Shown: positions 1,577-16,040 of the stretch, piece by piece
Layout: the number at the start of each line of letters is the position of its first letter
How positions within the stretch are numbered: position 1 is the first letter of the stretch
Assembly (NCBI GenBank): GCA_043805855.1
Contig: JAZDHP010000012.1
Span: 1-27,825, forward strand
Length of the DNA stretch: 27,825 nt
Source: Candidatus Micrarchaeota archaeon
GTDB lineage: Archaea > Micrarchaeota > Micrarchaeia > Norongarragalinales > UBA8480
Reading direction: 5' to 3'
Position numbers and translations under genes: made by a program
Notes under the pieces: generated by a model
Database searches by the model: none
Seen by the model: only the letters and a program-made list of their open reading frames with translations
What the model was told of the DNA's origin: nothing

Positions 1577-1650
1577 AAAAGCTTTAAATAGTTAATGTTA
1601 TCAATGATTAACATTAAAACAGATTTATTGATGATTGCTATGAACATTAA
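1577..1650 (+). promoter_or_regulatory. BRE/TATA promoter followed by paired inverted repeats (candidate operators)
   Basis: aaaagc-tttaaata (TATA 1583-1590); ttaatgtta-N8-taacattaa (1592-1617); degenerate copy ttattgat-N10-aacattaa (1625-1650). Confidence 0.55.
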
Positions 1651-2917
1651 TGTTAAAGCCGCGTTGTTTGATTATAACCCTTTTTGGACGGGTAGTTTTG
1701 AATTTCCTTATAGGGAGAGGACAATTTACTCTACTTTAGCTCCTTTTATAAAAGAAAAGCAAATTGTTTCCCTTTGTGGCTTACGGAGAGTTGGCAAAAC
1801 TACTATTTTAAAAAAAATAATTTCTAATTTAATAAAAGACAACGTTAATCCAACTGACATTTTATATTTTTCTTTTGATGATTTTCCTTCAAGTGAACCG
1901 AGAGAGGTAATTGACGTTTTTAGGGAAATTCACGGAAAAGAACCTAAATTTGTTTTTTTTGATGAAGTACAAAAAGTTAACAATTGGGCTGGAAAGATAA
2001 AGATACTTTATGATGTTAAAGGGTACAAGATTTTCGTTTCTGGTTCTGAATCTTTGTTCCTTCGCAAAGGTGCAGGAGAAAATTTAGCGGGGCGTATATT
2101 TGAATTTGAAGTACGGCAGCTATCCTTTTACGAATACTTGCATTTTATCGAAAAGGGCAGTTGGTTAGCTAATATGAAGTTGTTTGAACGAGAGTTAACC
2201 GCCGCTCTTAATGATTACTTGTTAATTTCGGGGTTTCCAGAGTTAATAGGCAAAAAAGACGAAGTGTTTATCCGTCAATATCTGCGCTCACTACTTGAAA
2301 AAGTAATTTTTTCTGATATGCCTGCGCTTTATTCTATTGATGAGCCGAAAAATCTAGTCAATATGCTAGACGTGTTAATAGATCGTCCCGGGATGCTAGT
2401 TGACTTTGTTTCACTTTCCCAAGAATTGGGTATATCACGTCAAACTCTTTCCAAGTATTTTGAGTTCCTCGAAGCCGCGCATCTTATTATTAAGGTTTAT
2501 AACTATTCGGCCAATAGGTTAACTTCGGAAAAGAAACTGAAAAAGTTTTACCCCGTTTTTTTGAGTTCCGCACTGTCGCATTCTAGTAATGAAAATTATT
2601 TATCAAAAGTAGTGGAGGCTGTTTGTGTTATTAGTAGCGGAGCAAAGTTCTTCTGGCGTGACGTTTATAAAAATGAAGTTGACATTATTCTCTTGCAAAA
2701 CAATAAGATTTTGCCGGTGGAAATTAAGTATAGCTCGCATCCAGAGCCAAAGAGGGGGCTTCAAAGATTTTGCAAAAAATACGCGTGCAAGCGAGCTTTA
2801 GTTGTGACAAAAAACACTAGGAAAACTGAAAAAACTTACGCTGAAGTAAAATGGATTCCTGTTTTTGAATTTCTGCTAAATCCAATGAGTTACATTATCC
2901 CAGAAAATCACAACTGA
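1640..2917 (+). CDS. AAA+ ATPase (AAA_14) with wHTH and DUF4143/PD-(D/E)xK-like C-terminal domain
   Basis: NPFW N-terminal motif, Walker A GLRRVGKTT, Walker B FFDEVQ, SGS, LAGR, GFP, EVDII..PVEIK. Start moved from 1595 to ATG 1640 (1631 also possible) because 1595 is too close to the TATA box. Confidence 0.9.
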   Translation: MNINVKAALFDYNPFWTGSFEFPYRERTIYSTLAPFIKEKQIVSLCGLRRVGKTTILKKIISNLIKDNVNPTDILYFSFDDFPSSEPREVIDVFREIHGKEPKFVFFDEVQKVNNWAGKIKILYDVKGYKIFVSGSESLFLRKGAGENLAGRIFEFEVRQLSFYEYLHFIEKGSWLANMKLFERELTAALNDYLLISGFPELIGKKDEVFIRQYLRSLLEKVIFSDMPALYSIDEPKNLVNMLDVLIDRPGMLVDFVSLSQELGISRQTLSKYFEFLEAAHLIIKVYNYSANRLTSEKKLKKFYPVFLSSALSHSSNENYLSKVVEAVCVISSGAKFFWRDVYKNEVDIILLQNNKILPVEIKYSSHPEPKRGLQRFCKKYACKRALVVTKNTRKTEKTYAEVKWIPVFEFLLNPMSYIIPENHN

Positions 2918-2927
2918 GGTTCTCTTT
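2891..2927 (+). repeat. Junction repeat copy 2
   Basis: tacattatcccagaaaatcacaactgaggttctcttt; encodes YIIPENHN* versus YITSEDHG* at the ORF1 end. Confidence 0.75.
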
Positions 2928-3008
2928 TTGTTTTCTTTCTTTTTTGATTTTTTCTAATTTCTTTTAATCTTTTTTTAATCCGTCTTTTAATTTTTAAGCT
3001 AATTGGTG

Positions 3009-3068
3009 TATTCCAGTTACTGGAATATAAAAGGCTATTTTTGTTCCAGTTACCGGAACGTTTATAAG
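3009..3068 (+). promoter_or_regulatory. Two palindromic operator-like sites plus TATA box
   Basis: tattccagt-t-actggaata (3009-3027, perfect 9-bp arms); gttccagt-t-accggaac (3043-3059, one mismatch); TATA tttataag 3061-3068, 23 nt before ATG 3092. Confidence 0.7.
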
Positions 3069-3091
3069 TGTGTTTCTTTACTTATTTTGAC

Positions 3092-4402
3092 ATGGAAGAT
3101 GAAGATTTAATCAAGGAATTAATAAGCCAAAACCCCTGGTGGAATACTGGCAAAGTAGAGCTTGAAAAAAACGTTGTTCAGCACAGTGTGTTTCCCATTA
3201 TTGAAGGTCAACTTCAAGAAAAACAAGTGCTAGCACTTGTTGGACTAAGGTCAGTTGGCAAAACAACTCTTTTAAGACAATTAATCCAAAAACGCTTAGA
3301 AACTGGAACAAAACCAAGTCATTTATTTTACTTTTCTTTTGACGGTTTCAAAAAACAAAGCGAAGTAATAAGCAAAGCACTAGCTCTTTATTCTAGTTCT
3401 ATTTTAAAACTACCTTTAGCGGAAATTGATTCAACGGTTTACGTGTTTTTGGACGAAGTGCAAAAAATTCCGGATTGGAGCGAAGAAGTAAAACGTTTTT
3501 ACGACAAAAATTTGAAACTCAAATTCATTGTTTCAGGTTCTTCCAGTATGAATATACTTAAGGGAAGTGGTGAAAGTCTAGTTGGGAGAATAATTATTAA
3601 CAAAATTTACCCATTTTCGTTCAGGGAATTTTTAAAGTACAATGGCTTAGAAGTTAAACAGCAAAACCCCTGGAATTTTGAATATCCGTTAAGCGCCGAC
3701 AAAATAAGCATTTTATTCAACCAATATTTGACAAAAGGCGGCTTTCCTGTTTTGTATCCGGTAAAAGAAGACGCACGTAAAGCACTTCTCAAGAGTATGG
3801 TTGACTTAACGTTCTATAGGGACATTGTAAACGTTTTTGACATAAAACGGTCGGACGTTTTAGAGGGGCTTTTTAGCATATTTGTACGTGAATCTGGAAA
3901 TGTTGTCAATTATGCTAATTTATCCGGAGCTTTGCAAGCGAAATTTGAAACAATTAAGCAGTATGTAGACTATCTGGAAGCTTCATTTTTAATTTCAAAA
4001 ACTCGATTTTATTCAAACAGTGTTTCAAAAACCCGGCAAAAAAATGAAAAGCTGTACGTTGCAGACCATGCGTTTAGCATGTTACAAGAAACTAAGTCAG
4101 GGAATTTAGTTGAAACAATTGTGCATAATGCTTTGAGAACTACTGGCTTTGAATTATTTTACTGGCAAAGTGACAAACAACGAGAAGTTGATATAGTTAT
4201 GACTAGCAAAAGTATAGTTCCGATAGAAGTTAAATATCAATCAAAAATTGCAGCAGAAGATTTTAAAAATCTACTTGAATTCATGGACGAATTTTCTGTA
4301 AAAAAAGGCGTGTTGGTAACAAAGAACCTTTTTGAAGTAAAAAAGCAAAAGGGTAAAGAGATTCACTGTGTTCCCGCTTGGTTATTTCTCTTGTCCATTT
4401 AA
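3092..4402 (+). CDS. AAA+ ATPase (AAA_14) with wHTH and DUF4143/PD-(D/E)xK-like C-terminal domain
   Basis: QNPWW, Walker A GLRSVGKTT, Walker B FLDEVQ, SGSS, ESLVGR, GGFP, EVDIV..PIEVK. ATG 3092 preferred over GTG 3068, which overlaps the TATA box. Confidence 0.9.
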   Translation: MEDEDLIKELISQNPWWNTGKVELEKNVVQHSVFPIIEGQLQEKQVLALVGLRSVGKTTLLRQLIQKRLETGTKPSHLFYFSFDGFKKQSEVISKALALYSSSILKLPLAEIDSTVYVFLDEVQKIPDWSEEVKRFYDKNLKLKFIVSGSSSMNILKGSGESLVGRIIINKIYPFSFREFLKYNGLEVKQQNPWNFEYPLSADKISILFNQYLTKGGFPVLYPVKEDARKALLKSMVDLTFYRDIVNVFDIKRSDVLEGLFSIFVRESGNVVNYANLSGALQAKFETIKQYVDYLEASFLISKTRFYSNSVSKTRQKNEKLYVADHAFSMLQETKSGNLVETIVHNALRTTGFELFYWQSDKQREVDIVMTSKSIVPIEVKYQSKIAAEDFKNLLEFMDEFSVKKGVLVTKNLFEVKKQKGKEIHCVPAWLFLLSI

Positions 4403-4445: not shown

Positions 4446-4652
4446 TCTTTCTTTTTGTTTTCTTTTCTCTTTTTTCTTCTTTTTATGCCGGCGTTAGTCT
4501 TCTTTTGAGGGCTAATTTCTTCAACATTCGTTCTATAATGAGGGCGAAAGTATTGTTGATTAGACTCATAAGCATTAGGTTTATGAGTATATTTCTTGAC
4601 TTTAGTAGATAACTGAATCAGATATTCTAGTTAGAGTATAGTTGACCATTTT

Positions 4653-5494: not shown

Positions 5495-6091
5495 TTAAAA
5501 ATCTCCTTTGTATTTTTTCTTTATGTACCCAAAAGCGTAGGTGTATAAATAATTTGCACTTGCGGTTTTTACAGTTTCTTTTAATGGTTCAACTTTAAAA
5601 CCGTCTTTTTCAATGAAATTTAACTTAGCTACTGGCTGTAAAATAACGAATTCCCCAATTGTGCTTCCCTTCAATACATAATTTGTAATGCTGGCGGCGT
5701 TCAAGTATCGCTGCCATTTTTTCACGTCGCGCTTCAAAACTTTTATAAAATACGGCGATCGTTCAATGCCACGCTGAACGTAGCTGTAATCGCTCCATAA
5801 TTCCACTGCGCTTAATCCAGTCATTGCATATGACATTGTCGCTTTTTTTAACGCTTCTGGAACTCGAAATTCTAATATACCTTTTACTGCGTTTTCCGGA
5901 GATGTGCATTTGTATTCAGTTTTACTAATTTTTGAAATCCACCCTGAGTTTAATAACAATGCAAAAATTTTCTTGCGCATAGGTTCGGAAACAATCCAGT
6001 CTAATTCACTTTGTTTAAAAGCTTCGCTAATTCCATGACGGCTGAAGAACAACGCATACGCGCGCATGCCAAAAGCAGGCAATTCAATCAT
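5495..6091 (-). CDS. Putative AbiEi-like antitoxin (wHTH + C-terminal domain)
   Basis: N-terminal wHTH-like segment (LLNSGWISKISKTEY), AMTGLSAVELW motif; 1 nt from the downstream NTase gene. Confidence 0.55.
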   Translation of the reverse strand: MIELPAFGMRAYALFFSRHGISEAFKQSELDWIVSEPMRKKIFALLLNSGWISKISKTEYKCTSPENAVKGILEFRVPEALKKATMSYAMTGLSAVELWSDYSYVQRGIERSPYFIKVLKRDVKKWQRYLNAASITNYVLKGSTIGEFVILQPVAKLNFIEKDGFKVEPLKETVKTASANYLYTYAFGYIKKKYKGDF

Positions 6092-6125
6092 AGTTACTTA
6101 ATAGGTAACTGAGCATATTTAATCT
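6092..6125 (-). promoter_or_regulatory. TATA box and inverted repeat directly upstream of the start codon
   Basis: agttac-N7-gtaact (6092-6110); minus-strand ttaaatat about 25 nt upstream of the ATG. Confidence 0.45.
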
Positions 6126-6163
6126 TATTGTTTAGTTTAAGCTATCTGAAGTAAATTAGTTTT

Positions 6164-6925
6164 CTAGGGGAATGAATTGTTTTTGCTCCATTGTATTAAG
6201 GTTTTTTCCACGATTTTAAATTCCGGCAGTTCTGCAAATATGAGCCCGGATAGTTCTTTTTTCCAAGCTTGTTGTTTTTCAGTTATCTTTTTGTTAAATA
6301 GCGTTTGTGAAAATGCTATTTGGTAATATTCTAATTTTTTTGCTACTAATTCTTTTTTAAATTTAACTTGTTGTGAATTTATTAAAAAGTATAAATCGTA
6401 CACGTCGCGTGGTGCGTTACGGGTTAAAATTGCGCGGGTTTTTTCGGCAGCAATTTCGTCCAAGGTCATGCCGTTAATTATTTTCACAGGTAAGACGTAT
6501 GCATCTGCTTCGAGTTTGAGTGCAAGTGGCTTTTCAATAACTTGTTCTCGTTTGCTTATTTCAACATAAACGTGACATAAATCTTTTATAGATGTATTCA
6601 AGGGGCCTCGTGCGCTTATTCGAAAAGATAGAGAAACGTCACTGTTACATATTGGTTTAACTGTGTTTTCAACGCCAAATAATTTCAAGTTTTCAGAAAC
6701 ACGTTTTGCGAGGTCATCTTCTATAGGGCTAAGCATAGTGAAATCGAGATCTTCGGAAAAACGCGGCAAGTTGTAGTAAAACCAAAGGTAAGTGCCGCCT
6801 TTAAAAACAAGCGGGTAATCAGCTAGCGTTTCAAGTATTAAATTTTGCAAGTAGTGTTTTTCCTGTTGCCAAATGCGTAAGTTATTCAATTTAGCGATTT
6901 GTCCTAGTTTATCTTTGTCAATCAT
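6164..6925 (-). CDS. abiEii: AbiEii/AbiGii-family nucleotidyltransferase toxin (type IV TA)
   Basis: EKHYLQ, LVFKGGTYL, RFSEDLDF, AEKTRAILTRNAPRDVYDL are canonical AbiEii motifs. Confidence 0.92.
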   Translation of the reverse strand: MIDKDKLGQIAKLNNLRIWQQEKHYLQNLILETLADYPLVFKGGTYLWFYYNLPRFSEDLDFTMLSPIEDDLAKRVSENLKLFGVENTVKPICNSDVSLSFRISARGPLNTSIKDLCHVYVEISKREQVIEKPLALKLEADAYVLPVKIINGMTLDEIAAEKTRAILTRNAPRDVYDLYFLINSQQVKFKKELVAKKLEYYQIAFSQTLFNKKITEKQQAWKKELSGLIFAELPEFKIVEKTLIQWSKNNSFP

Positions 6926-7497
6926 AACAAGTACCTCTCAAGTTTTTTCTTTCCCTTGCCTTTAAATCGTTTCAAAAAATCGGTAACTTTTTTTAGGTCT
7001 ATCTTTTCGAGAATTTCCAAAGCATTGGGTTTATTCAGTGCATTTAGATAAATGGCGTCTATTAAAGCTTTTTCAGGCTCTGCTACTAAAATGTAGCTAT
7101 TTCCCTTTTTGTGTTTTTCATAACCGAAAAATAGTGAAGGGGGAATTTTGTGATATGTTATTCCTAACTTCGGAAAGCGGAAACTGTTTTTAGTTGTAAT
7201 GCACTCTACTTGTGTTGGAATTTGTTGAATAAGGCCGTGGAACAACAATGCGGAATTCAATGAAATATAACTTGGTTCAACCATTTGTGTTGCAATAATG
7301 TAGTCGTCGTCAGTAAAGGATATTCTACCGCGTAGCAATCTTTTTGCTAGCTTTTTTTTAACTAGACGACTAAAATATACTTTTGTGATCCTTTTTGGTT
7401 TTCCAATTAGATTAGCGAGTTGTTGAATAGAGTAGATCTCTCGTCCACTTTTCATGGCTTTGTCTCGAATTTCGTACAAATTAAGTTGTTTTGTCAT
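6922..7497 (-). CDS. abiEi: AbiEi-family antitoxin / transcriptional regulator
   Basis: N-terminal HTH; PSYISLNSALLFHGLIQQIP; AEPEKALIDAIY; ATGA overlap with abiEii. Confidence 0.88.
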   Translation of the reverse strand: MTKQLNLYEIRDKAMKSGREIYSIQQLANLIGKPKRITKVYFSRLVKKKLAKRLLRGRISFTDDDYIIATQMVEPSYISLNSALLFHGLIQQIPTQVECITTKNSFRFPKLGITYHKIPPSLFFGYEKHKKGNSYILVAEPEKALIDAIYLNALNKPNALEILEKIDLKKVTDFLKRFKGKGKKKLERYLL

Positions 7498-7501
7498 GTC
7501 C

Positions 7502-7540
7502 AGGTAACAATATGGTTACTTCCCAGTGATTTAAAAGGTT
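7502..7540 (-). promoter_or_regulatory. Imperfect palindrome and TATA box upstream of abiEi
   Basis: aggtaacaat/atggttactt (7502-7521, 8/10 paired); minus-strand cttttaaat around 7529-7537. Confidence 0.45.
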
Positions 7541-7577
7541 TTTGGCGCTTGTTGTTTTTGTTGTTTGTTTGGTTTTA

Positions 7578-7722
7578 TAGCAGAACGCGAAAGTCTTTCG
7601 GACTTCAGCATTTTGCCCTTAGCAAAATGTCTGAGTCACAAAGCGAAGCTTTGTGCTCATTTGCGCTTTCTGCTAGATAGCAAAAGGCCGAAAAGTCCCA
7701 AAAGACTTTTCGGTTTTGCTAT
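7578..7722. repeat. Structured cloverleaf element copy A plus adjacent hairpin (REP/MITE-like element or ncRNA)
   Basis: Outer stem tagcagaa/ttctgcta enclosing aagtc/gactt, cattttgc/gcaaaatg and cacaaagc/gctttgtg; second hairpin atagcaaaa..ccgaaaagtc/gacttttcgg..ttttgctat (7677-7722); homologous to 13573-13655. Confidence 0.7.
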
Positions 7723-7878
7723 AATGTCGTTTGTTATCATTTTTGATAATAAAGTGAGTAGTTTGTCTCTTTGTCTAATTTTTTCAGCGGTTTAAATTTT
7801 ATTTAGCGGTTAGTTTAAACTAATTAACGCATTTAACGAAATGCCACAATCTTTAAATAATGGTGATTTCTTACATTT

Positions 7879-8127
7879 ATGGTGAATTTAGTGGAAGTTG
7901 GAGTTTACGAGAAGAGTCTTGACAACCAAGGTAGGTTTGTCGTTCCAGTTGCACTTCGTTCAACGTTGAAAGAGTTTCTAATGCTAGTTTACAAAGACCA
8001 CGTGAAACTCGTGCCAAAAAAGCACGTTAAGTTAACTGATTTGTTTGACTCTGTTGAAGTTCCGAATCTTCCAGCTGACTATAAACAACTAAAACGCGAA
8101 TTAATGCGCAAATATGAGGTTGAGTGA
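7879..8127 (+). CDS. vapB: AbrB/MazE/SpoVT-family antitoxin (VapB)
   Basis: KSLDNQGRFVVPVALR swapped-hairpin motif; GTGA overlap with the PIN gene; TATA ctttaaata 7851-7859. Confidence 0.75.
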   Translation: MVNLVEVGVYEKSLDNQGRFVVPVALRSTLKEFLMLVYKDHVKLVPKKHVKLTDLFDSVEVPNLPADYKQLKRELMRKYEVE

Positions 8128-8552
8128 GACACTTGCGATTTGTAGATTCTAATATATTGATATATGCGTTGCTTAAATCGCAGCGGGAACTTACCTCTGA
8201 AGTGCGCGCGATAAAAAGTTCAGCTCAAAACATACTTGCCCGAGTTGAAAAAGGTGAAAAGGTGATAACTAGCGTGGTTCATTTATCTGAATTTGTCAAC
8301 GTGCTTGAACGTCATATTTCAGCTAGACAACAGCGAGCTACTTTAGAGTCTATATTGTCAAATAAAAATATTGAAATTGTATCTGTAACTAGAGAAAGTT
8401 ATGATTTGGCTATTGAATTAGCTCGAAATAGTGAATTAGGTATAAATGACGCTCTTGCTGTAGTGATAATGCAACAAAGAGAGGTTAGTGAGATTTACTC
8501 TTTTGACAAAGATTATGATTTAGTTTCAGGCGTAATTCGACTTACTAAATAA
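8124..8552 (+). CDS. vapC: PIN-domain VapC toxin
   Basis: FVDSNILIY, HLSEF, INDALAV, IYSFDKDYD acidic PIN motifs. Confidence 0.9.
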   Translation: MRHLRFVDSNILIYALLKSQRELTSEVRAIKSSAQNILARVEKGEKVITSVVHLSEFVNVLERHISARQQRATLESILSNKNIEIVSVTRESYDLAIELARNSELGINDALAVVIMQQREVSEIYSFDKDYDLVSGVIRLTK

Positions 8553-8606
8553 GTAACTATTTCACTATGTTTAAATGCCTTACTTGCGTTACTTTTAGGT
8601 ATACAC

Positions 8607-11600
8607 ATGTTTGGGCGTAATAAACCTGAAAAGCAAAGTGGGTTGGGAGACAAGTTTAAAGAGCTAGAGGAAGCCAAGCCAACTCAAGTTGAAAAAGTTG
8701 ACACTGGTTTTGGCAAAAAGGATTACTATTTACAAGAGCAAGAGCAAGTTGAACTTGGCAAAAGCGGGTTATACAACAAAGGCGGCAAAGGCAAGATAAA
8801 ATTCGAACTGCCAAAAATAAATCCCCTGCTAATTGCGGGAATTTTGTTAGTTATTATTGGCGTTGCTGGCTTTCTATTTTTTTACAAGCCAACGCAAGTT
8901 GTTGCAGGTGGTTTTGAAATTGTCGTATTTGCAGGAGAAGCGAAGTTACCAAATGCAGTTGTAACTGTTTACGATGGCGAAATCGCTATTGCTAACGCAA
9001 CTACTGATTCCAGCGGCCGCGTGTCTTTCTCTGGGCTTCCGAATAAAATATTGAAATTTGAAGTTTCTACAAGCAGTGGCAAAGTGAACAAATCAATTAA
9101 CACAAGAGGAAGAAAAGCTTATTCTTTCAACGTCGGCGGTGCAGGGATAATTGCAGTTGACGAGTTGGTTTTTTCAATTTTACAAGAGGGAACTCGCGAG
9201 CCAATTGAAGGAGTTAAAATTTCTTATTCTCTTGGAAGTGAAGTAGCGCGTCGTTTTGTTGACAGTGCAAGCGACGGCAAAGCAGTTATTCCATTGGAAG
9301 GGGAAAGTATTGTTCGTTTACGTATTGTTGACCCACAGCGTCGCTTCCAGCCAGAAAGTTTTTCAATCCTGGCAAGTAAAGCGCCGAGGGAGATTTTACT
9401 AAAACCTCTTGAACGCAGTGCCACGCAGGCGAATGTTGAACCGCTAACCACTAGTGTAATTGTCAAGCCTCGTTTTGAAAGTGCAGTTGTTCCAAATGCA
9501 ATTGTAACCGCGAGTTACGTTTTTACTGGCGGTGAAATTAATTCAGTTGCAGCAACTAATGGTGAAGCGCGTTTTGAAAACTTATCAATAAACTCTCTTA
9601 TTTCATTTACAGTTCAAGCTCCTAGTTTTTATCCAAAGTCTAACCAAGTGCAATTAACAAAAGAAATGCAGCCAATTGTAATTTCTTTGAATAAAATTCC
9701 TCCAGAGGCGCCAAGGACAAAAATAGTTGCCAATGTTGGCAGTGGCGAAGTTTACATTTTCCAAAAAGGCAATTTGACTAAACTTGTTTCAACAGTTTTA
9801 GTAAATGGTTCAGCTCAATTTGTGCTTGAAGAAGGAGCGTACTACGCGTTGGTAATTGCGCAGGGTTACTTGCCGTTTACGACAAGTGAGTTTACAAATG
9901 GTGAACAAGTTAATGTTGAACTATTGCAATCAAGTGAAGAAAATTCAGTTAACTTAGAAGTTAACGTAACTGACGAGGACGGTGCGTCTCTCTCAGGCGC
10001 AAGTGCAGTTGTTTTAAACGCAGATGGTTTACTAGCGAGCTTACCAATTGAAACTCAACTTGACGCGCCGGTTACTTTTGTACTGCCGGTTAATTTACAA
10101 GCCGAAGCACGTGCTGTTTTTGAAGGCATTGAAGCTTCGCAAGTGGTTGATTTATTTCAAGACGCGTCAGTTCAGTTACAGCTAAGTACAAAAGCAGCGT
10201 TTCTTGACTTACAAGTTCGCAGCTTAAAGGACAATTCGTTAGTAAGTGTAACGTTAACGAGTTTTTACAACGGTGCAGCTTACAATTCCTGCAGTGGTAA
10301 TGGTGGTTGTACTGTTCGTGTTAAAGGTAATGAAGACATTGCAGTTCAAGTTGAAGGAGCTGGTTACTTGCCTTACACTTTTTACAGCGAGTCAATTCCT
10401 GAACGAACTGCGAAAAGCGACGTTGTGCACGTTGTGCCGTCAAGTTTAGCAAATGCTGTTGATGTTAAGTTACTTGAAGTTAAAAACAGCGAGAGCAATG
10501 TTGTTACTGGAAATGTTTTACGTCCAGGTAAGTACAACGCGCGTTTTTTTGTATCTGGAATTAATGCAGAGCAACTTTCACTTTATGTTCGCATTGGCGA
10601 TGGAAAGCAAAACTCTTCTTTATCTGCAGTGCATTTACTTGAGCCACTTTCTGTAAATGATGTAGATGTAGCAAAGTCAAAAGTTTACCTTGGCGAAAAG
10701 CCACAGTGTGAAGATTTGCTAGATCCAGCAATGGAACCGCCGTACAAGTGGGTTGAGTTAACTTTCTTTAACACTTCAACGCAAGAAGTTGACATTCCAT
10801 TTGAAATTCCGCAAAACATTCGTGGAAATTCAACATTTACACTTGAATACCGAGGTAAAATAGTTGCAGGCAATGCAGTTAGCCGCTTTCCGCAAGATTC
10901 AGTTCTTGGTTTTGAACCAGCTTCTCTAACGCGCGCAAATTGCTATGCTGAAACAACTGGCCAACGTTTTACAATTTCCGAAAGCCAAGCGCCGTCAATT
11001 GAAAGCGTGCTTCCGCTAGTTGAAGGTCAGTTTACAAGCAGCGACGGTATTGTTTTTGATCCAGTGCAAGGCAAGATAAAATCGCAAAATGGTTTAACTG
11101 CGTTTGAATTGCAAGTTGACTCAATTTTACCCGGAGACGCCATGCCTTTAGCGTTGCAATCCGACGACCAGTGTTCAATTTTAGTAAAACAGCCAAACAC
11201 TACGTCTAATGATCCAACTGCGTCTTGCTATCGTTATGATTCAGCAAAGTCAATGCTGGTGTTTGAAACTAAAGAGTTGAACTCCATTTGTCCAATTTAC
11301 TTGAAAAACGATAAGTTCTATTCAAAAAATGGAGCAAGGGTTCTACGCAGCAACGCGACGTTATCTATATTGGCAACTTGCTCTCCTGAAGCAAAAATGG
11401 AAATGCCAATAACTGTCAAATTTGTTTCTGACGTTGTTTCTCTTACAGTGAAGCCAGAGTCAGATCAACTTGGTGAAGGCGACGCGGCGAAGTTACTTTA
11501 TGTTATAAACAACCGCCAGCTACAGCGCCGTAACATAGAAGCAACATTCCAGTCAACTAAAAACTACCAGTTGTCTGGCGTAAGTGCAAAAGCAATAGCT

Positions 11601-13397
11601 TGGCGCGGGCCGGGCGATTTGGAGTTCAGCGAAAACGGGGATTTAATTGAACAGATTACCTTCGAAGGTACGCCTAACAATTTCTTGAAAACTGGAATTG
11701 GCATTTTAAGCCACCGTCAAACTACTTGCGGTGCAAGCGACGTTTACTGCTGTGCAAATGGCTGGTGTACGCGTAAAGCGCTTGAAGAGTTTATTCCCTC
11801 GTTTAAAGAAATCGCGTTGAAAACTGCAAAGGCAACTGCATTTCGTCGCGGTAGCGGCCAACCATTGGCTTACTTTTCGTCAACTCCGTTTAAATTCGTA
11901 ACAGTTGTACAAGCAGCTCAAGGCAGCCAAACGGCGCTCACTGTACAGGGAACGACTTTTTCACAGCCAGTAACTTGCCTACCTGGAAACCCGGGCGTTT
12001 ATGAGTTAACTGCTTCTTCGCTTGACAATGGCGACGATTCATGGAACTACTCTGCGCGTGCACTTGAATTGAAAAGCGGCGATTACATTCAAGCGCCTTC
12101 AGGTTGCGGCGGGGGCTCAAATGTAACTCAATTTAGCGCGACGGCGCCAAACGGTGAAGTAACGTTGTGCAACTTCTTGCAGCCGAAGAACAATTGCATT
12201 GAGTCAACTAAAAACGCGTCGATTGTTTCAATTGACCAAGTTGAAACACTAACGTTTGAATTTACTAACTGCATGTATCCAGTTTTCCCGGGTGCGCCTG
12301 TATGTCCTGGGATAAAAATGGTGCTTCCTGCTGTTAACATTGGTAACTTAGAGTCAGAAGCTGAGTTTAACCCTGCGGACGCTCCGAACGCGTTTGAAAA
12401 AATCTGGGAGGGGTTCAGCGATAGAAGTAATTCAAACTTTTCGATATTTTCTTGGAGCGGGCAACTCAAATGCATTGTGCCGCCTTCAGTGCAGCAGTTT
12501 GCAATTACAGCAGCAGCTTCTGGGATTAATTTAATGCCAGGCGCAGCTGACGAGGAAGCTAAAACGAGAACCGCAGCGCCAGTAACCGCAGACGTGTGCA
12601 AACAATCGGACTTCTTTAACCTTGGAGTGATACCTAACATGGATACACTCATTCCGCTTGCGGGAGTATGCTGTCCAGAGGGGATAACCGCCCAAATTTG
12701 TACTCCAAAGCGCGGTAAATTCTTCGTTAGCTCTCGTGATAACAAAGTGAAAATAATAACCCAATGGGGTTTAACCGAAGGTTGCTACCCGTACTGGCCG
12801 TTCCCAACAACAATTAAGGGTTTAATGCAAAGCCAAAACTTGGTAAGCGCGGCGTTTGGACTTGGCGAGTTCATCACTTCCAACGGCGCGAATTTTGAAA
12901 TGTCCCTATCTTCAGAAACGCCAGGCGAAAAGCCAGTTGCCGCAGCTGGTCTGTCAAGCAAAGCATGCCGCGGTGATGGCGAATGTGCAGCTTACGAGCA
13001 ATGTGCGGTTAACTCGATTTATTCCTATAAGGGAAGCGGTGCAGGTGGAAGCGGTAAATGCGTTGGTGCTAGCTCGACTCCGGGAGTTTGTACATATTCA
13101 AACGTAAAAGAAAAAGAGAAGTGCACTGGTGGCATGCAATGTGAAACCAGCGGCGACAAAACTGCAACTTGCAAAGAATGCGGAAATGCAAACGAAGCGT
13201 CATGCTGTGTAAGCGACACCAACGCCTACTGCAAAGGACATTTAGGTTGTTTCCAAACTGGAACGGTTTTCAAGTGCACTTCTAATTGTGGTGACGAAGA
13301 GCAACCGCCATGTGCGGATACAATGTGCAATTCAGGCTTGCGTCCAACTTCTCCAACATTTACTGGCGACACAGGCAGTTCAAAATGCGTTAAGTAA
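8607..13397 (+). CDS. Giant single-pass membrane surface protein with carboxypeptidase-regulatory/PEGA-like beta-sandwich repeats and a Cys-rich C-terminus
   Basis: Charged ~70-aa N-terminus, TM helix LLIAGILLVIIGVAGFLFFY, repeats such as LPNAVVTV..TTDSSGRVSF, PIEGVKI..SDGKAVI and SLSGASAV; dense Cys motifs at the C-terminus. Confidence 0.75.
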   Translation: MFGRNKPEKQSGLGDKFKELEEAKPTQVEKVDTGFGKKDYYLQEQEQVELGKSGLYNKGGKGKIKFELPKINPLLIAGILLVIIGVAGFLFFYKPTQVVAGGFEIVVFAGEAKLPNAVVTVYDGEIAIANATTDSSGRVSFSGLPNKILKFEVSTSSGKVNKSINTRGRKAYSFNVGGAGIIAVDELVFSILQEGTREPIEGVKISYSLGSEVARRFVDSASDGKAVIPLEGESIVRLRIVDPQRRFQPESFSILASKAPREILLKPLERSATQANVEPLTTSVIVKPRFESAVVPNAIVTASYVFTGGEINSVAATNGEARFENLSINSLISFTVQAPSFYPKSNQVQLTKEMQPIVISLNKIPPEAPRTKIVANVGSGEVYIFQKGNLTKLVSTVLVNGSAQFVLEEGAYYALVIAQGYLPFTTSEFTNGEQVNVELLQSSEENSVNLEVNVTDEDGASLSGASAVVLNADGLLASLPIETQLDAPVTFVLPVNLQAEARAVFEGIEASQVVDLFQDASVQLQLSTKAAFLDLQVRSLKDNSLVSVTLTSFYNGAAYNSCSGNGGCTVRVKGNEDIAVQVEGAGYLPYTFYSESIPERTAKSDVVHVVPSSLANAVDVKLLEVKNSESNVVTGNVLRPGKYNARFFVSGINAEQLSLYVRIGDGKQNSSLSAVHLLEPLSVNDVDVAKSKVYLGEKPQCEDLLDPAMEPPYKWVELTFFNTSTQEVDIPFEIPQNIRGNSTFTLEYRGKIVAGNAVSRFPQDSVLGFEPASLTRANCYAETTGQRFTISESQAPSIESVLPLVEGQFTSSDGIVFDPVQGKIKSQNGLTAFELQVDSILPGDAMPLALQSDDQCSILVKQPNTTSNDPTASCYRYDSAKSMLVFETKELNSICPIYLKNDKFYSKNGARVLRSNATLSILATCSPEAKMEMPITVKFVSDVVSLTVKPESDQLGEGDAAKLLYVINNRQLQRRNIEATFQSTKNYQLSGVSAKAIAWRGPGDLEFSENGDLIEQITFEGTPNNFLKTGIGILSHRQTTCGASDVYCCANGWCTRKALEEFIPSFKEIALKTAKATAFRRGSGQPLAYFSSTPFKFVTVVQAAQGSQTALTVQGTTFSQPVTCLPGNPGVYELTASSLDNGDDSWNYSARALELKSGDYIQAPSGCGGGSNVTQFSATAPNGEVTLCNFLQPKNNCIESTKNASIVSIDQVETLTFEFTNCMYPVFPGAPVCPGIKMVLPAVNIGNLESEAEFNPADAPNAFEKIWEGFSDRSNSNFSIFSWSGQLKCIVPPSVQQFAITAAASGINLMPGAADEEAKTRTAAPVTADVCKQSDFFNLGVIPNMDTLIPLAGVCCPEGITAQICTPKRGKFFVSSRDNKVKIITQWGLTEGCYPYWPFPTTIKGLMQSQNLVSAAFGLGEFITSNGANFEMSLSSETPGEKPVAAAGLSSKACRGDGECAAYEQCAVNSIYSYKGSGAGGSGKCVGASSTPGVCTYSNVKEKEKCTGGMQCETSGDKTATCKECGNANEASCCVSDTNAYCKGHLGCFQTGTVFKCTSNCGDEEQPPCADTMCNSGLRPTSPTFTGDTGSSKCVK

Positions 13398-13572
13398 CTC
13401 ACTTAGCTAATCGATTCTAATTAAAAATAAGTTAAGGTATACCGCGCGTTTATTGAGTTATGGCTAGGCTAATTGTAAATCAAAAGTTAAAATTATAAAA
13501 AAAGGGAAAACGGGAACAAAAAAGAAAAGTCCCCGTTCGGAGAAAAAATTATTTTAGGTTAGCTCTTGGCCG

Positions 13573-13655
13573 AGGTCTCAATGAGCACAACGCTTTGCGT
13601 TGTGACTCAGTCACAATTCCGCGGAATTGTGCTGAAGGCCCGGCCTTGAGGGCCT
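13573..13655. repeat. Structured cloverleaf element copy B (inverted relative to copy A)
   Basis: aatgagcacaa-cgctttgcg-ttgtgactcag-t-cacaattccgcggaattgtg-ctgaaggcc-c-ggcctt; outer stem aggtctca/tgagggcct. Confidence 0.7.
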
Positions 13656-13660
13656 TTGTT

Positions 13661-14719
13661 CTAGTACTTTATAGCGTCTAGGTTGTAGGTTGGCATTGCT
13701 GGTTTGGCGGCTACTTCGTGGCCAACAAGTTGGTCACTTTGGATGCCAGTGAGCACAGCAGTGACGACGATTTTGTCGCCCATTTCTGGAACTAAACGCG
13801 CTCCCCATTTCACGTATGCGTTTGAGTCAAACGATGAAGTTATACCTTCTCCAATTTTAACAGCTTCGCCTAGTGTTAAGTTCGAGCCACCTTGAATTAA
13901 GATGAGCCCTCCCTTTGCTCCAGCGTAGTCTACGTCAAGCAGCGGGTGTTCAAGCGTTGATTTAATAACGTCGTCAACCTTGTCGTTGCCCTTGCCTTCG
14001 CCAATGGAAATCATTGAAACTCCACCGCCTGACATGATCATCCTCAAGTCTGCGAAGTCAATGTTCATCAAGCTAGGCAGCATGATTGTGTCTGCAATGC
14101 CTTTAACTGCCCGAGCAACTAGCGTGTCTGCAACTGCAAAAGCTTGGTTCATTGGAAGATTCGGTACATAAGATACAAGGCGGTTGTTGTCGATAATTAC
14201 AACTGTGTCGCATACCTTTGTTAGTTCTTCAATTCCCCAGTCTGCTTTTGACAAACGCGCGCGTTCAAGAACAAACGGGAAAGATACAATTGCGATTGTA
14301 ATTGCTCCAGTTTTCTTTGCAATATCTGCAATAACTGGTGCTGCGCCTGTACCAGTTCCGCCTCCCATACCTGCGGTTATGAAAACTAGTTCATTATCTC
14401 CAAGTAGTTCAGCGAGTTTCTCGCGAGAGCTTTCAGCTGCTTTCATTCCAATTTCGGGAAAGCCGCCAGCGCCCATACCCTTAGTAAGGTTAGCTCCTAT
14501 AAGCACTTTTTTGTCAGCGTCAATTAGTTTCAAGTGGTTCGCGTCAGTGTTTATCGCAATGGTTCTTGCACTTTCCAAGCCCATTGATTTTAACCTGTGC
14601 ACGGTGTTTGTTCCAGCGCCTCCAACTCCAACAACGCTAATGCGAATGTCAGACGGTGCTAGGCTCTTTACTGTTTTTGGCGTCGAGTTTCTCATCGCGT
14701 CAGCAATTAATCCATCCAT
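13661..14719 (-). CDS. ftsZ: Cell division GTPase FtsZ (FtsZ2-like), second copy
   Basis: [22 protein letters not shown] signature, IDNNRL, NIDFAD T7 loop. Confidence 0.96.
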   Translation of the reverse strand: MDGLIADAMRNSTPKTVKSLAPSDIRISVVGVGGAGTNTVHRLKSMGLESARTIAINTDANHLKLIDADKKVLIGANLTKGMGAGGFPEIGMKAAESSREKLAELLGDNELVFITAGMGGGTGTGAAPVIADIAKKTGAITIAIVSFPFVLERARLSKADWGIEELTKVCDTVVIIDNNRLVSYVPNLPMNQAFAVADTLVARAVKGIADTIMLPSLMNIDFADLRMIMSGGGVSMISIGEGKGNDKVDDVIKSTLEHPLLDVDYAGAKGGLILIQGGSNLTLGEAVKIGEGITSSFDSNAYVKWGARLVPEMGDKIVVTAVLTGIQSDQLVGHEVAAKPAMPTYNLDAIKY

Positions 14720-14770
14720 TTTATTTTTGATACCTCTTTTTCTCCGTTTTTTCCCTACCCTCCTTGTGTT

Positions 14771-14904
14771 TAGCCCGCTTTCGCGAACTATGGTTAATCA
14801 TTGCGCGTGAAAAATTAGCGCACGGATTCCTTTCTACGTTCTGCGCTATATGCAGCGCAACGAGTTTCACAACCCTGGTGGGGAATTTTGGGTTGTTCGC
14901 CCCG
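14771..14904 (-). ncRNA. Candidate structured leader/intergenic RNA between the two ftsZ genes
   Basis: GC-rich island in AT-rich spacer; minus-strand UAGUUCGC-GAAA-GCGGGCUA hairpin with G-U pairs; further stems ttgcgc/gcgcaa, tagcgca/tgcgcta, acaaccc/gggttgt. Confidence 0.4.
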
Positions 14905-14969
14905 TTTTTTTCCTTATATTAAAAAAAATGGAAAAAATCAAAAAATAAAAAAATATAAAATTTTGAACT

Positions 14970-16040
14970 CTATCCTAGGATTTCAATGTCGTATCCGGGT
15001 TCCTTTGTGGCTTTCTTTTGAACTGGTCCATGGCCGACCACGTGTGGTGATTTAACTCCAGTTACAATTGCCGTAATCTCGAGCTTACCGTCGTAGTCTG
15101 GGATTAACCTTGCTCCCCATTTGACACTTGCGTTGGGGTCCATTTGTTCGGTTATAATTTCACCTGCTTTAATTGCATCTCCTAGTGTTAAGTCAGCGCC
15201 GCCTGCGATGTGAATAATCGCACCTTTAGCACCTGCAAAGTCAACGTCAAGCAAACGGTTCTTCATAACGCCGTTTACTGCGTCTTCAACTTTATTCGAG
15301 CCCTTGCCACTGCCTACTGCGATCATTCCAACGTCTCCATTGCCCATGATTGCCCTGACATCAGCAAAGTCAATGTTGACTAGAGAAGGTTGTGTAATGG
15401 TGAACACGAGGCCTCCGATTGCTTTGCCAAGGATTTCATCGGCAACTAGAAACGCTTGGTTCATAGGTAGGTTTGGCACAATCTCAACTAGGCGATTGTT
15501 GTCAAGTATAATTACGGAGTCTGCAACTTGGCGTAGGCGTTGAATTCCTTCGTCTGCTTTGAATACGCGAGCGCGTTCAAGTGCAAATGGATAAGAGACC
15601 ATTGCAACTACAATTGCGCCTTGTTCCTTTGCAATTTGTGAAATAATTGGCGCTGAACCAGTTCCAGTTCCGCCTCCCATACCTGCGGTTACGAAAACTA
15701 AGTGAGAGCCGCTGAGAACTTTTTCCAATTCTGGTCGGTCAACTTCTGCGCATTTAGCTCCAATTTCTGGGAACCCGCCTGCGCCAAGGCCTTTTGTTAT
15801 ACTTTTTCCAATTAGAACTTTGTGAATGCCTTCTTCCATTAGCGAAAGGTGCTGTCGGTCAGTGTTACATGCTACTAACTCTGCGCCTTTTACGCCGAGG
15901 CGTTTCAAGCGGTTAATTGTGTTATTGCCTGCTCCACCGCATCCAATTACCACTATTTTGATTTCTTCAAAATCGTCATTGTTGCTAGTAGACTTCGAAG
16001 AACCGTTGCCTTGCATTGCTGATTTTACTATATCTTCCAT
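14970..16040 (-). CDS. ftsZ: Cell division GTPase FtsZ (FtsZ2-like)
   Basis: [41 protein letters not shown]-like aggagttga upstream. Confidence 0.97.

Follow-up and report, generated by a model that had tools for sequence, protein, structure and literature searches.

A small double-hairpin unit nested in hairpin repeats of a Micrarchaeota genome, probably a REP-like non-autonomous mobile element

Insertion sequences of the IS200/IS605 group, such as IS608, are marked by subterminal hairpins with extrahelical bases; they make no target duplication and, on one strand, insert next to a short target word. Integron attC sites are single folded hairpins with R and L boxes and extrahelical bases, which occur in arrays next to intI. 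REP repeats are described, in a survey devoted to them, as short imperfect palindromes, often in inverted doublets, mostly intergenic and carrying a GTAG or CGTC tag; some lie in genes, and the survey notes REP families that have no dedicated transposase (PMC3733652). For the DPANN archaea, a MITE census reports high MITE densities in some genomes, obtained with a tool that requires inverted repeats (PMC11602168).

We analysed two copies of a double-hairpin unit in one stretch of 27,825 nucleotides (the window) from a Candidatus Micrarchaeota genome, G000 (1.03 Mb in 67 contigs, 41% G+C, 92% complete). A first-pass annotation of the window had described a dispersed cloverleaf with conserved junctions and covarying arms, in copies A and B, and had proposed either a REP/REPIN-like non-autonomous element or a structured RNA family. 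Our analyses indicate that copies A and B are probably insertions of a non-autonomous mobile DNA element, taking the anatomy, targeting and mechanism proposed below as a whole. That the unit is mobile DNA we regard as very probable; a single-strand, hairpin-recognising mechanism is offered tentatively and may well prove wrong.

PTH2, two FtsZ genes and an ATP-dependent DNA ligase are among the genes of the window and mark it as archaeal. The FtsZ paralogues stand in tandem on the minus strand (13661-16040), with copy B located 25 nt past the first one's stop codon, and two paralogues of an ATPase with AAA_14 and DUF4143 domains are likewise in tandem (1595-4402). Copy A lies about 100 nt upstream of a gene pair formed by an AbiEii-type nucleotidyltransferase toxin (6164-6925) and its 191-aa upstream partner (6922-7497). 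A small ORF (7879-8127) and a PIN-domain gene (8124-8552) resemble a VapBC-type toxin-antitoxin pair and, since 794 nt (7765-8558) are skipped in a contig of a related strain, look like a presence/absence cassette beside the hairpin block.

The unit extends over 51-58 nt, from an invariant T to an invariant A, and consists of two abutting bulged hairpins of about 25 nt each, related by a pseudo-dyad and sharing the C of CTCAG. Hairpin 1 comprises TGAG, a stem-loop opened by C and closed by G, a bulged A, and CTC; hairpin 2 comprises CAG, a bulged A or T, a second stem-loop opened by C and closed by G, and CTGA. The invariant words are TGAGC, GACTCAG and GCTGA, TAGG, TCGG and TGGG occurring as variant starts besides TGAG, and the ends resemble an inverted repeat (TGAGCA against TCAGCA). 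The unit is near-identical on its two strands, such that a covariance model of it matches both. Among 47 units, with boundaries taken from the model, the commonest lengths are 54 nt (14 units) and 55 nt (10 units). Copy A begins with TGAG, has GACTCAG followed by A at its centre and ends with CTGA, the bulged A of hairpin 1 being on the 3' side and that of hairpin 2 on the 5' side. Copy B has the same invariant bases but a T as the bulge of hairpin 2, so that its centre is a perfect palindrome except for the middle base. A strict core pattern, consisting of the invariant bases and two free gaps, matches the window twice, at copies A and B, and matches none of 100 dinucleotide-preserving shuffles of it. 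The letters on which the first-pass annotation had relied, namely the reverse complement of 7603-7661 and the plus strand at 13580-13637, are correctly quoted, and the GCGAAGC stretch that it pointed out at copy A is present on the plus strand.

The covariance model was built from 18 aligned copies of this genome, in which the T before hairpin 1, the basal C/G of each stem, the central ACT.AG and the CT.A after hairpin 2 are invariant. Standard pairs fill 97.9% of 382 pair cells and both-sided changes are found at 15 of 22 pairs, values that none of 500 shuffles reached; when partners are slid by 1-3 columns, pairing falls to only 30-38%. The combination of invariant junctions with arms that differ and still pair, which had been described from two copies, is thereby upheld on eighteen. 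Variation in the stems rises from foot to tip, the basal pairs being invariant and the tip pairs the most variable. There are few stem types, and these serve as first or second hairpin in varying combinations. Loops change freely on identical stems, one 8-bp stem type having five different 3-nt loops in six copies. Centres of 3 nt are present in 35 of 82 distinct hairpins, TTC or GAA being the commonest; the statistics of perfect palindromes are mixed, centres without a spacer being in excess (7 of 23 even-length centres) and one-base centres in deficit (2 of 37 odd-length centres). The gradient from foot to tip fits recognition of the feet only, and also fits re-synthesis of the tip from the other arm. 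Stem differences this wide among the copies of one genome are unusual for recent amplification; they call either for several source lineages present together or for a step that diversifies the stems.

Plain pattern searches of G000 already revealed many further copies, and searching it with the model returned 53 matches over both strands, which were merged to 25 loci. Twenty-two have two hairpins and three (C31, C59 and C66) carry two extra hairpins at the centre; in G000 these extra hairpins occur at those three loci only and none stands alone. Matches are confined to 8 genomes among 101 relatives. Within the genus, and after merging, the 25 loci of this genome compare with about 14, 3 and 2 in three congeners; outside it there is one locus in a genome of a neighbouring genus, and one or two weak matches in each of three genomes from other families. 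When 185,579 species, each represented by one genome, were scanned with a pattern, 44 loci came up. On re-scoring with the model, all 20 archaeal loci scored 43-72 bits, 13 of them from two Micrarchaeota MAGs, 3 from one further archaeon and 4 from three Altiarchaeota-labelled MAGs; the 24 bacterial loci gave 17-26 bits in eight cases and no score in sixteen. The distant archaeal copies keep the invariant bases on wholly different stems. Searching for further copies with a covariance model, as the annotation had suggested, has thus added loci both here and in other DPANN genomes.

On rough ORF maps most copies are intergenic and three or four overlap long ORFs. Two units, C1:2506-2561 and C4:7155-7210, are near-identical together with their flanks, as the result of either a recent segmental duplication or assembly redundancy, and the former is situated some 110 nt upstream of the SRP RNA gene (C1:2670-2935). 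Elsewhere on C4 (526-1255) two opposed units flank a gene for a 170-aa lysine-rich zinc-ribbon protein (659-1171), a layout that is REPtron-like; no HUH-like motif was seen by eye in that protein.

Three sites allow the extent of the inserted DNA to be resolved. Copies A and B both sit within other small hairpin repeats, families F3 and F4, of which empty members exist. When copy A is compared with the empty F3 on C64, the flanks are 97-98% identical and contiguous and only 55 nt are missing; when copy B is compared with the empty F4 on C47, the flanks are 100% identical over 17 and 24 nt, and again contiguous. The third unit, C10:4381-4434, lies in a conserved 246-aa gene which in G001, G002 and G003 is without exactly 18 codons at that place: the protein match in G001 and G002 falls into two pieces that abut in the target, 18 query residues being absent, the same gap is seen in G003, and the codon alignment gives exactly 54 nt extra in G000. 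Each comparison carries a one-base ambiguity, and only an insert running TGAG...CTGA is compatible with all three; none of the sites has a target-site duplication. A 9-nt direct repeat around a copy on C45 was considered as a target duplication and dropped, given these three duplication-free sites. A fourth unit, of 57 nt, lies on C56 (about 5628-5684) in a conserved winged-helix-like gene, six homologues of which, from other genera, are without 18 residues there. Both in-gene copies have lengths that are multiples of three and are open in frame.

The public runs found to cover window 6000-15000 are three sets of DNA contigs, all from one groundwater study, and none of RNA. Contigs of a related strain agree with this picture of insertion without being independent proof of it. 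One, from a groundwater run (X1), skips the 146 nt of 7576-7721; another skips exactly 7605-7659, and may represent that strain's copy of the C64 paralogue; in a contig from run X1, 17 nt stand in place of 13549-13661. In G002 and G003 the orthologous spacer downstream of ftsZ does not contain copy B (the spacer of copy A is too diverged in G002 to align), and all four G002/G003 loci that can be placed by synteny fall where G000 has no match. The turnover of copies therefore outpaces divergence among the species of the genus. A multi-copy unit, varying in number within the genus, with empty sites and with insertion that is precise even in frame, supports the REP/REPIN-like non-autonomous element of the first-pass annotation.

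The same annotation had offered a structured RNA as its second reading, and the covariation lends this some appeal. The units would then be small structured RNA genes or a small self-cleaving ribozyme, with the invariant junction as core and the variable stems as scaffolds. Invariant junctions and fully covarying stems are found in several DPANN lineages, many copies are followed on the canonical strand by terminator-like T-run hairpins, and two copies are near RNA genes: one, with four hairpins, directly borders a tRNA gene at its 5' end, and the other is that upstream of the SRP RNA gene. The T-run hairpins, however, belong to pre-existing hosts, the two in-frame copies of 54 and 57 nt interrupt conserved protein genes and are absent from relatives, copies are not kept at orthologous sites, and a unit that is near-identical on both strands is bordered, beyond T...A, by sequence unrelated between copies. 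Rfam 15 has no match in the window at gathering score, and at E values up to 10 only chance-level, microRNA-like long-hairpin matches; the annotation had not recognised the element, and no Rfam family proved to match it. Rfam on the flanks of 20 other copies gave nothing relevant, ARAGORN found no tRNA in the window, and a scan for T-arm motifs near the units found none adjoining, the nearest being 416 nt from C31:2752. Box C/D sRNAs combine a C box (RUGAUGA) and a D box (CUGA) with internal C' and D' boxes and single-stranded guides of about 12 nt. In the unit, a 5' AUGAGCA fits five of the seven C-box positions and CUGA stands at the 3' end, yet on inspection the C' and D' boxes are absent and the would-be guides are self-paired, and this candidate was set aside. 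The hammerhead (whose core words are absent), twister and hairpin ribozymes were dropped by eye against their consensus motifs. A K-turn was dropped on the strength of copy C4b, in which G replaces C at the centre and a matching change is present at both possible partners; this is what Watson-Crick pairing in hairpin feet would give, and not what a K-turn would. We conclude that RNA is very improbable as the primary nature of the unit.

Excision at the RNA level would be another way for insertions in tRNA and protein genes to be harmless. Such an intron-like cassette would be excised by the archaeal splicing endonuclease and would owe its spread to reverse splicing and reverse transcription, and a genome rich in multi-intron tRNA genes would suit it. 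Reverse transcriptase (Pfam RVT_1), though, was found in none of the five genomes searched, and lengths in multiples of three with an open frame, as in both in-gene copies, are expected if the unit is translated and needless if it is spliced. In the archaeal bulge-helix-bulge motif, a 4-bp helix at the exon-intron borders separates two bulges of 3 nt. Judged by inspection against this motif, the unit has no bulge-helix-bulge, its one-base bulges being internal and its T and A borders unbulged; moreover the helix would need pairing with the exon, yet the exon differs at each site. We accord this cassette scarcely any probability, and return to insertion at the level of DNA.

The sites of insertion are not random. 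In 47 units the preceding base is A in 30, and the following bases are A or T in 40, then G in 29, G in 25 and C in 31. A^AGGCC and A^AGTCC, where the caret marks the insertion point, are typical; copy B, for example, interrupts an A-tract of F4 at CTCAA^AGGCC. Insertion is strand-specific and mostly just 5' of a WGGC motif, and apart from this bias the sequences outside T...A are unrelated among copies. The WGGC flank could stem partly from co-mobilised host hairpins instead of target choice. Once the unit is taken out, the joined flanks of 22 sites have a mean folding energy of -10.5 kcal/mol, compared with -4.2 kcal/mol at 600 random intergenic sites (Mann-Whitney p = 7e-9), and the insertion point usually falls in the A-tract of a hairpin's 5' arm or just before its 3' arm. 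The landing sites were thus already hairpins: terminator-like GGCC hairpins, T-run hairpins or other small hairpin repeats, with occasional sites in frame in genes.

For copies A and B the host hairpins are members of F3 and F4 (Table 1). From the left part of F3 come one side of copy A's closing stem and the third hairpin, and the other side of that stem lies in the right part; the span flagged at the outset (7578-7722) corresponds approximately to a 146-nt composite (7576-7721) of an F3 of about 91 nt and the 55-nt unit. The existence of unit-free hosts and the folding of the rejoined flanks together identify the closing stems and third hairpins as the halves of split host hairpins, F3 for A and F4 for B. 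The first-pass annotation was right that third hairpins and closing stems are there in the sequence; they are not part of what is dispersed, which is a two-hairpin unit smaller than was drawn. Its claim of dispersal stands, at 25 loci, and its cloverleaf does not. The cloverleaf is an accident of nesting, a unit plus the host hairpin that it has split.

Table 1. Copies A and B of the unit and the host elements around them (window coordinates)
Feature	Coordinates	Strand or side	Basis or remark
Copy A, 55-nt double-hairpin unit	7605..7659	-	Pattern match; covariance-model match, 74.4 bits
Copy B, 54-nt double-hairpin unit	13582..13635	+	Pattern match; covariance-model match, 77.2 bits
Host element F3, left part	7576..7604	plus-strand left	F3 without unit on C64, C48 and C10
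Host element F3, right part, including its own second hairpin (~7680-7721)	7660..7721	plus-strand right	
Host element F4, left arm	13566..13581		Unit-free F4 copies on C47, C9 and C22
Host element F4, right part	13636..13658		Supplies third hairpin (aaggcc/ggcctt) and closing stem of copy B

Several such hairpin families coexist in the genome. F3 is a double-hairpin repeat of about 91 nt, bounded by TATAGC...GCTATA, with four copies (C64:25531-25625, C48 at about 5569-5662, C10 at about 36272-36323, and window 7576-7721); it looks mobile too, since the whole 146-nt block is missing from the contig of the related strain. F4 is a palindrome of about 39 nt, rich in GGCC and with a T run after it (C47:15926-15965, C9 at about 30540-30580, C22 at about 4452-4490), and on C47 and C9 it directly abuts, by eye, apparent 5' halves of tRNA genes that tRNA finders miss. 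F2, a third double-hairpin family of about 11 copies, has the palindromic centre AAGGCCTT; four copies (C1, C4, C8 and C31) carry the unit at this central AAGGCCTT, in either orientation, and seven are without it (C5:57975, C5:63180, C10:25274, C10:42116, C19:2571, C45:9810 and C62:1762). Overall, the genome contains 229 perfect hairpins of at least 8 bp, compared with 105 in a Markov control, and 26 hairpin doublets, compared with none. About 40 hairpins of a pyrimidine run and a purine run, of the type CTTTTCTTTT...AAAAGAAAAG, are spread genome-wide, many of them beside or inside tRNA genes (for example C45:6087-6109, C53:5756-5777 and C10:43969-43995); since they yield a T run on each strand, they probably act as bidirectional terminators or as processing stems. 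The tRNA genes themselves are split by several introns, and at C31:1-245 a four-hairpin unit abuts position 1 of the tRNA. In G000, which is 92% complete, ARAGORN reports 10 tRNA genes and the Rfam tRNA model gives 14 matches, five of them above threshold.

How the unit moves can be outlined as follows. A trans-acting enzyme would work on single-stranded DNA, reading bases in both bulged hairpins, cutting at the T and the A, and pasting or copying the unit elsewhere. Recognition of the foot bases would explain why these alone are invariant, and stem tips that need only pair, or that are regenerated from the opposite arm, would explain why the tips vary while pairing stays near-perfect. Bulged ends, the lack of duplication, a strand-specific word and hairpin targets together suggest an enzyme that, like HUH enzymes, recognises the feet of hairpins on one strand, and target DNA that forms hairpins would be transiently single-stranded. 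Formally, the process would resemble the peel and paste of IS200/IS605 or REP-RAYT systems, in that no duplication is made and the unit lands beside a short target word. By inspection, there is no clear guide-like base pairing between the target word and a hairpin foot.

The first-pass annotation had connected the element with HUH/Y1 enzymes, and co-occurrence lends this connection no support. Pfam Y1_Tnp (PF01797) is found in none of the four genomes of the genus (completeness 92% for G000, 91% for G002, 71% for G001 and 62% for G003), G010 being the only genome to contain it in that search; across the 101 relatives, the 22 genomes with Y1_Tnp comprise 2 of 8 that bear the unit and 20 of 93 that do not, which is no association. 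The mobilising enzyme would accordingly seem, from these gene inventories, to be something other than a recognisable Y1 transposase of these genomes. No member of the TnpB zinc-ribbon family exceeds the cut-off in G000-G003, where one weak match, of 18.6 bits, was obtained in G000. Isolated half-units flanking a gene, as in an autonomous form, do not occur in this genome, and neither the profile searches of G000-G003 nor the half-unit search in G000 revealed a full-length TnpA/TnpB element sharing the ends of the unit. Viral contigs contain two pattern matches; at 15.8 and 19.5 bits, and without paired stems, these are attributable to chance. Phage and plasmid records hold no match to the 146-nt block. 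A metagenome scan for the four-hairpin variant returned at least 118 loci; among the matches listed, the gap holds a hairpin in one case, a GC-rich match attributable to chance.

These searches bear directly on a miniature element of IS200/IS605 type, akin to PATE or REP, whose Y1 HUH transposase (TnpA or RAYT) would be encoded elsewhere, whether by the symbiont's host cell, by a virus or plasmid, or in sequence missing from the assembly. Bulged hairpins at both ends, the absence of target duplication and strand-specific insertion by a short word (on the opposite strand the unit follows GGCCT or GGACT) are what such an element would display, and Y1_Tnp genes do exist in the order, in the 22 genomes already mentioned. 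The gene was nonetheless found in none of the four genomes of the genus, including the most copy-rich, and does not co-occur with the unit; the TnpB zinc ribbon does not reach its cut-off in G000-G003, the unit was not found in viral contigs (two chance-level matches aside) or in phage and plasmid records, and stems differ widely among the copies of one genome. We hold this source of mobility to be decidedly unlikely. A bolder proposal, which we consider unlikely but would not pass over, is that the unit represents a class of mobile DNA new to prokaryotes, whose enzyme, none of the known transposases, would read only the bulged feet on single-stranded DNA, with the tips re-made at each move. 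Were this true, the enzyme might be a housekeeping or symbiosis-linked nuclease or ligase of DPANN archaea; copying of tips from the opposite arm would produce instant covariation and hypervariable loops; and landing in hairpins, in the surroundings of tRNA genes and in gene loops would make the unit one of the chief ways in which these reduced genomes acquire new introns, leaders and protein inserts.

The preferred reading, a non-autonomous mobile unit, has consequences for the genome and for its annotation. DPANN genomes of about 1 Mb are thought to be streamlined, yet this one has at least four nested families of tiny hairpin repeats, among which the unit has the cleanest anatomy, with exact ends, a target word and invariant feet. 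Terminators and leaders are interrupted by units, which also lengthen proteins by 18-19 residues and lie next to tRNA and SRP RNA genes. The units further confuse gene and RNA finders and, through perfect covariation, mimic structured RNAs, which is a warning for covariation-based RNA discovery. The main interest lies in which activity mobilises the unit, a question that can now be tested: with no recognisable transposase in the four genus genomes, REP-like mobility without a RAYT is open to experiment with defined 54-nt oligonucleotides. A literature search found no published account of such elements in archaea, Micrarchaeota or DPANN.

Set against known systems, the unit resembles classical MITEs in being non-autonomous, short and multi-copy, with ends like inverted repeats, but differs in that the three resolved sites have no target-site duplication. 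By inspection, it is unlike integron attC sites, being a doublet where these are single hairpins with R/L boxes, and being scattered where these form cassette arrays. With IS200/IS605 elements and PATEs it shares the absence of target duplication (three of three sites) and insertion beside a short word on one strand (47 units); it differs from them in that it has no cargo, that TnpA and TnpB are not found in the genus and that its ends lie only 4 nt from the hairpin foot. Mitochondrial double-hairpin elements and related hairpin repeats of fungi, sponges and algae, compared here by description, are likewise two adjacent hairpins, mobile-looking, nested and non-coding, though they are organellar, and none was found described in archaea. 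The RPEs of Rickettsia, as summarised in the REP survey, are small palindromic repeats that lie in frame in protein genes and have no known transposase, in all of which they resemble the unit (PMC3733652). They are longer, sequence-conserved and proper to an intracellular bacterium, whereas the unit has 51-58 nt, exact T...A ends and a target word.

The likeness to REP, BIME and REPIN repeats lies in bulged imperfect palindromes arranged as inverted doublets, dispersed, and varying in copy number between close relatives (PMC3733652). In size too, the two hairpins of about 25 nt fall within the 20-40 bp given for REP/REPIN palindromes in inverted doublets. The differences are that the unit begins with TGAG and ends with CTGA in place of a GTAG or CGTC tag; that no RAYT/Y1 gene is found in the genus genomes (62-92% complete) and no gene is flanked by half-units; and that its stems are not conserved in sequence, its hairpins overlap by one base, and its bearer is a DPANN archaeon. 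Its closest analogues are REP/REPIN repeats, Rickettsia RPEs, mitochondrial double-hairpin elements and the miniature derivatives of IS200/IS605, and the unit is a real element of a known kind, in an apparently undescribed variant.
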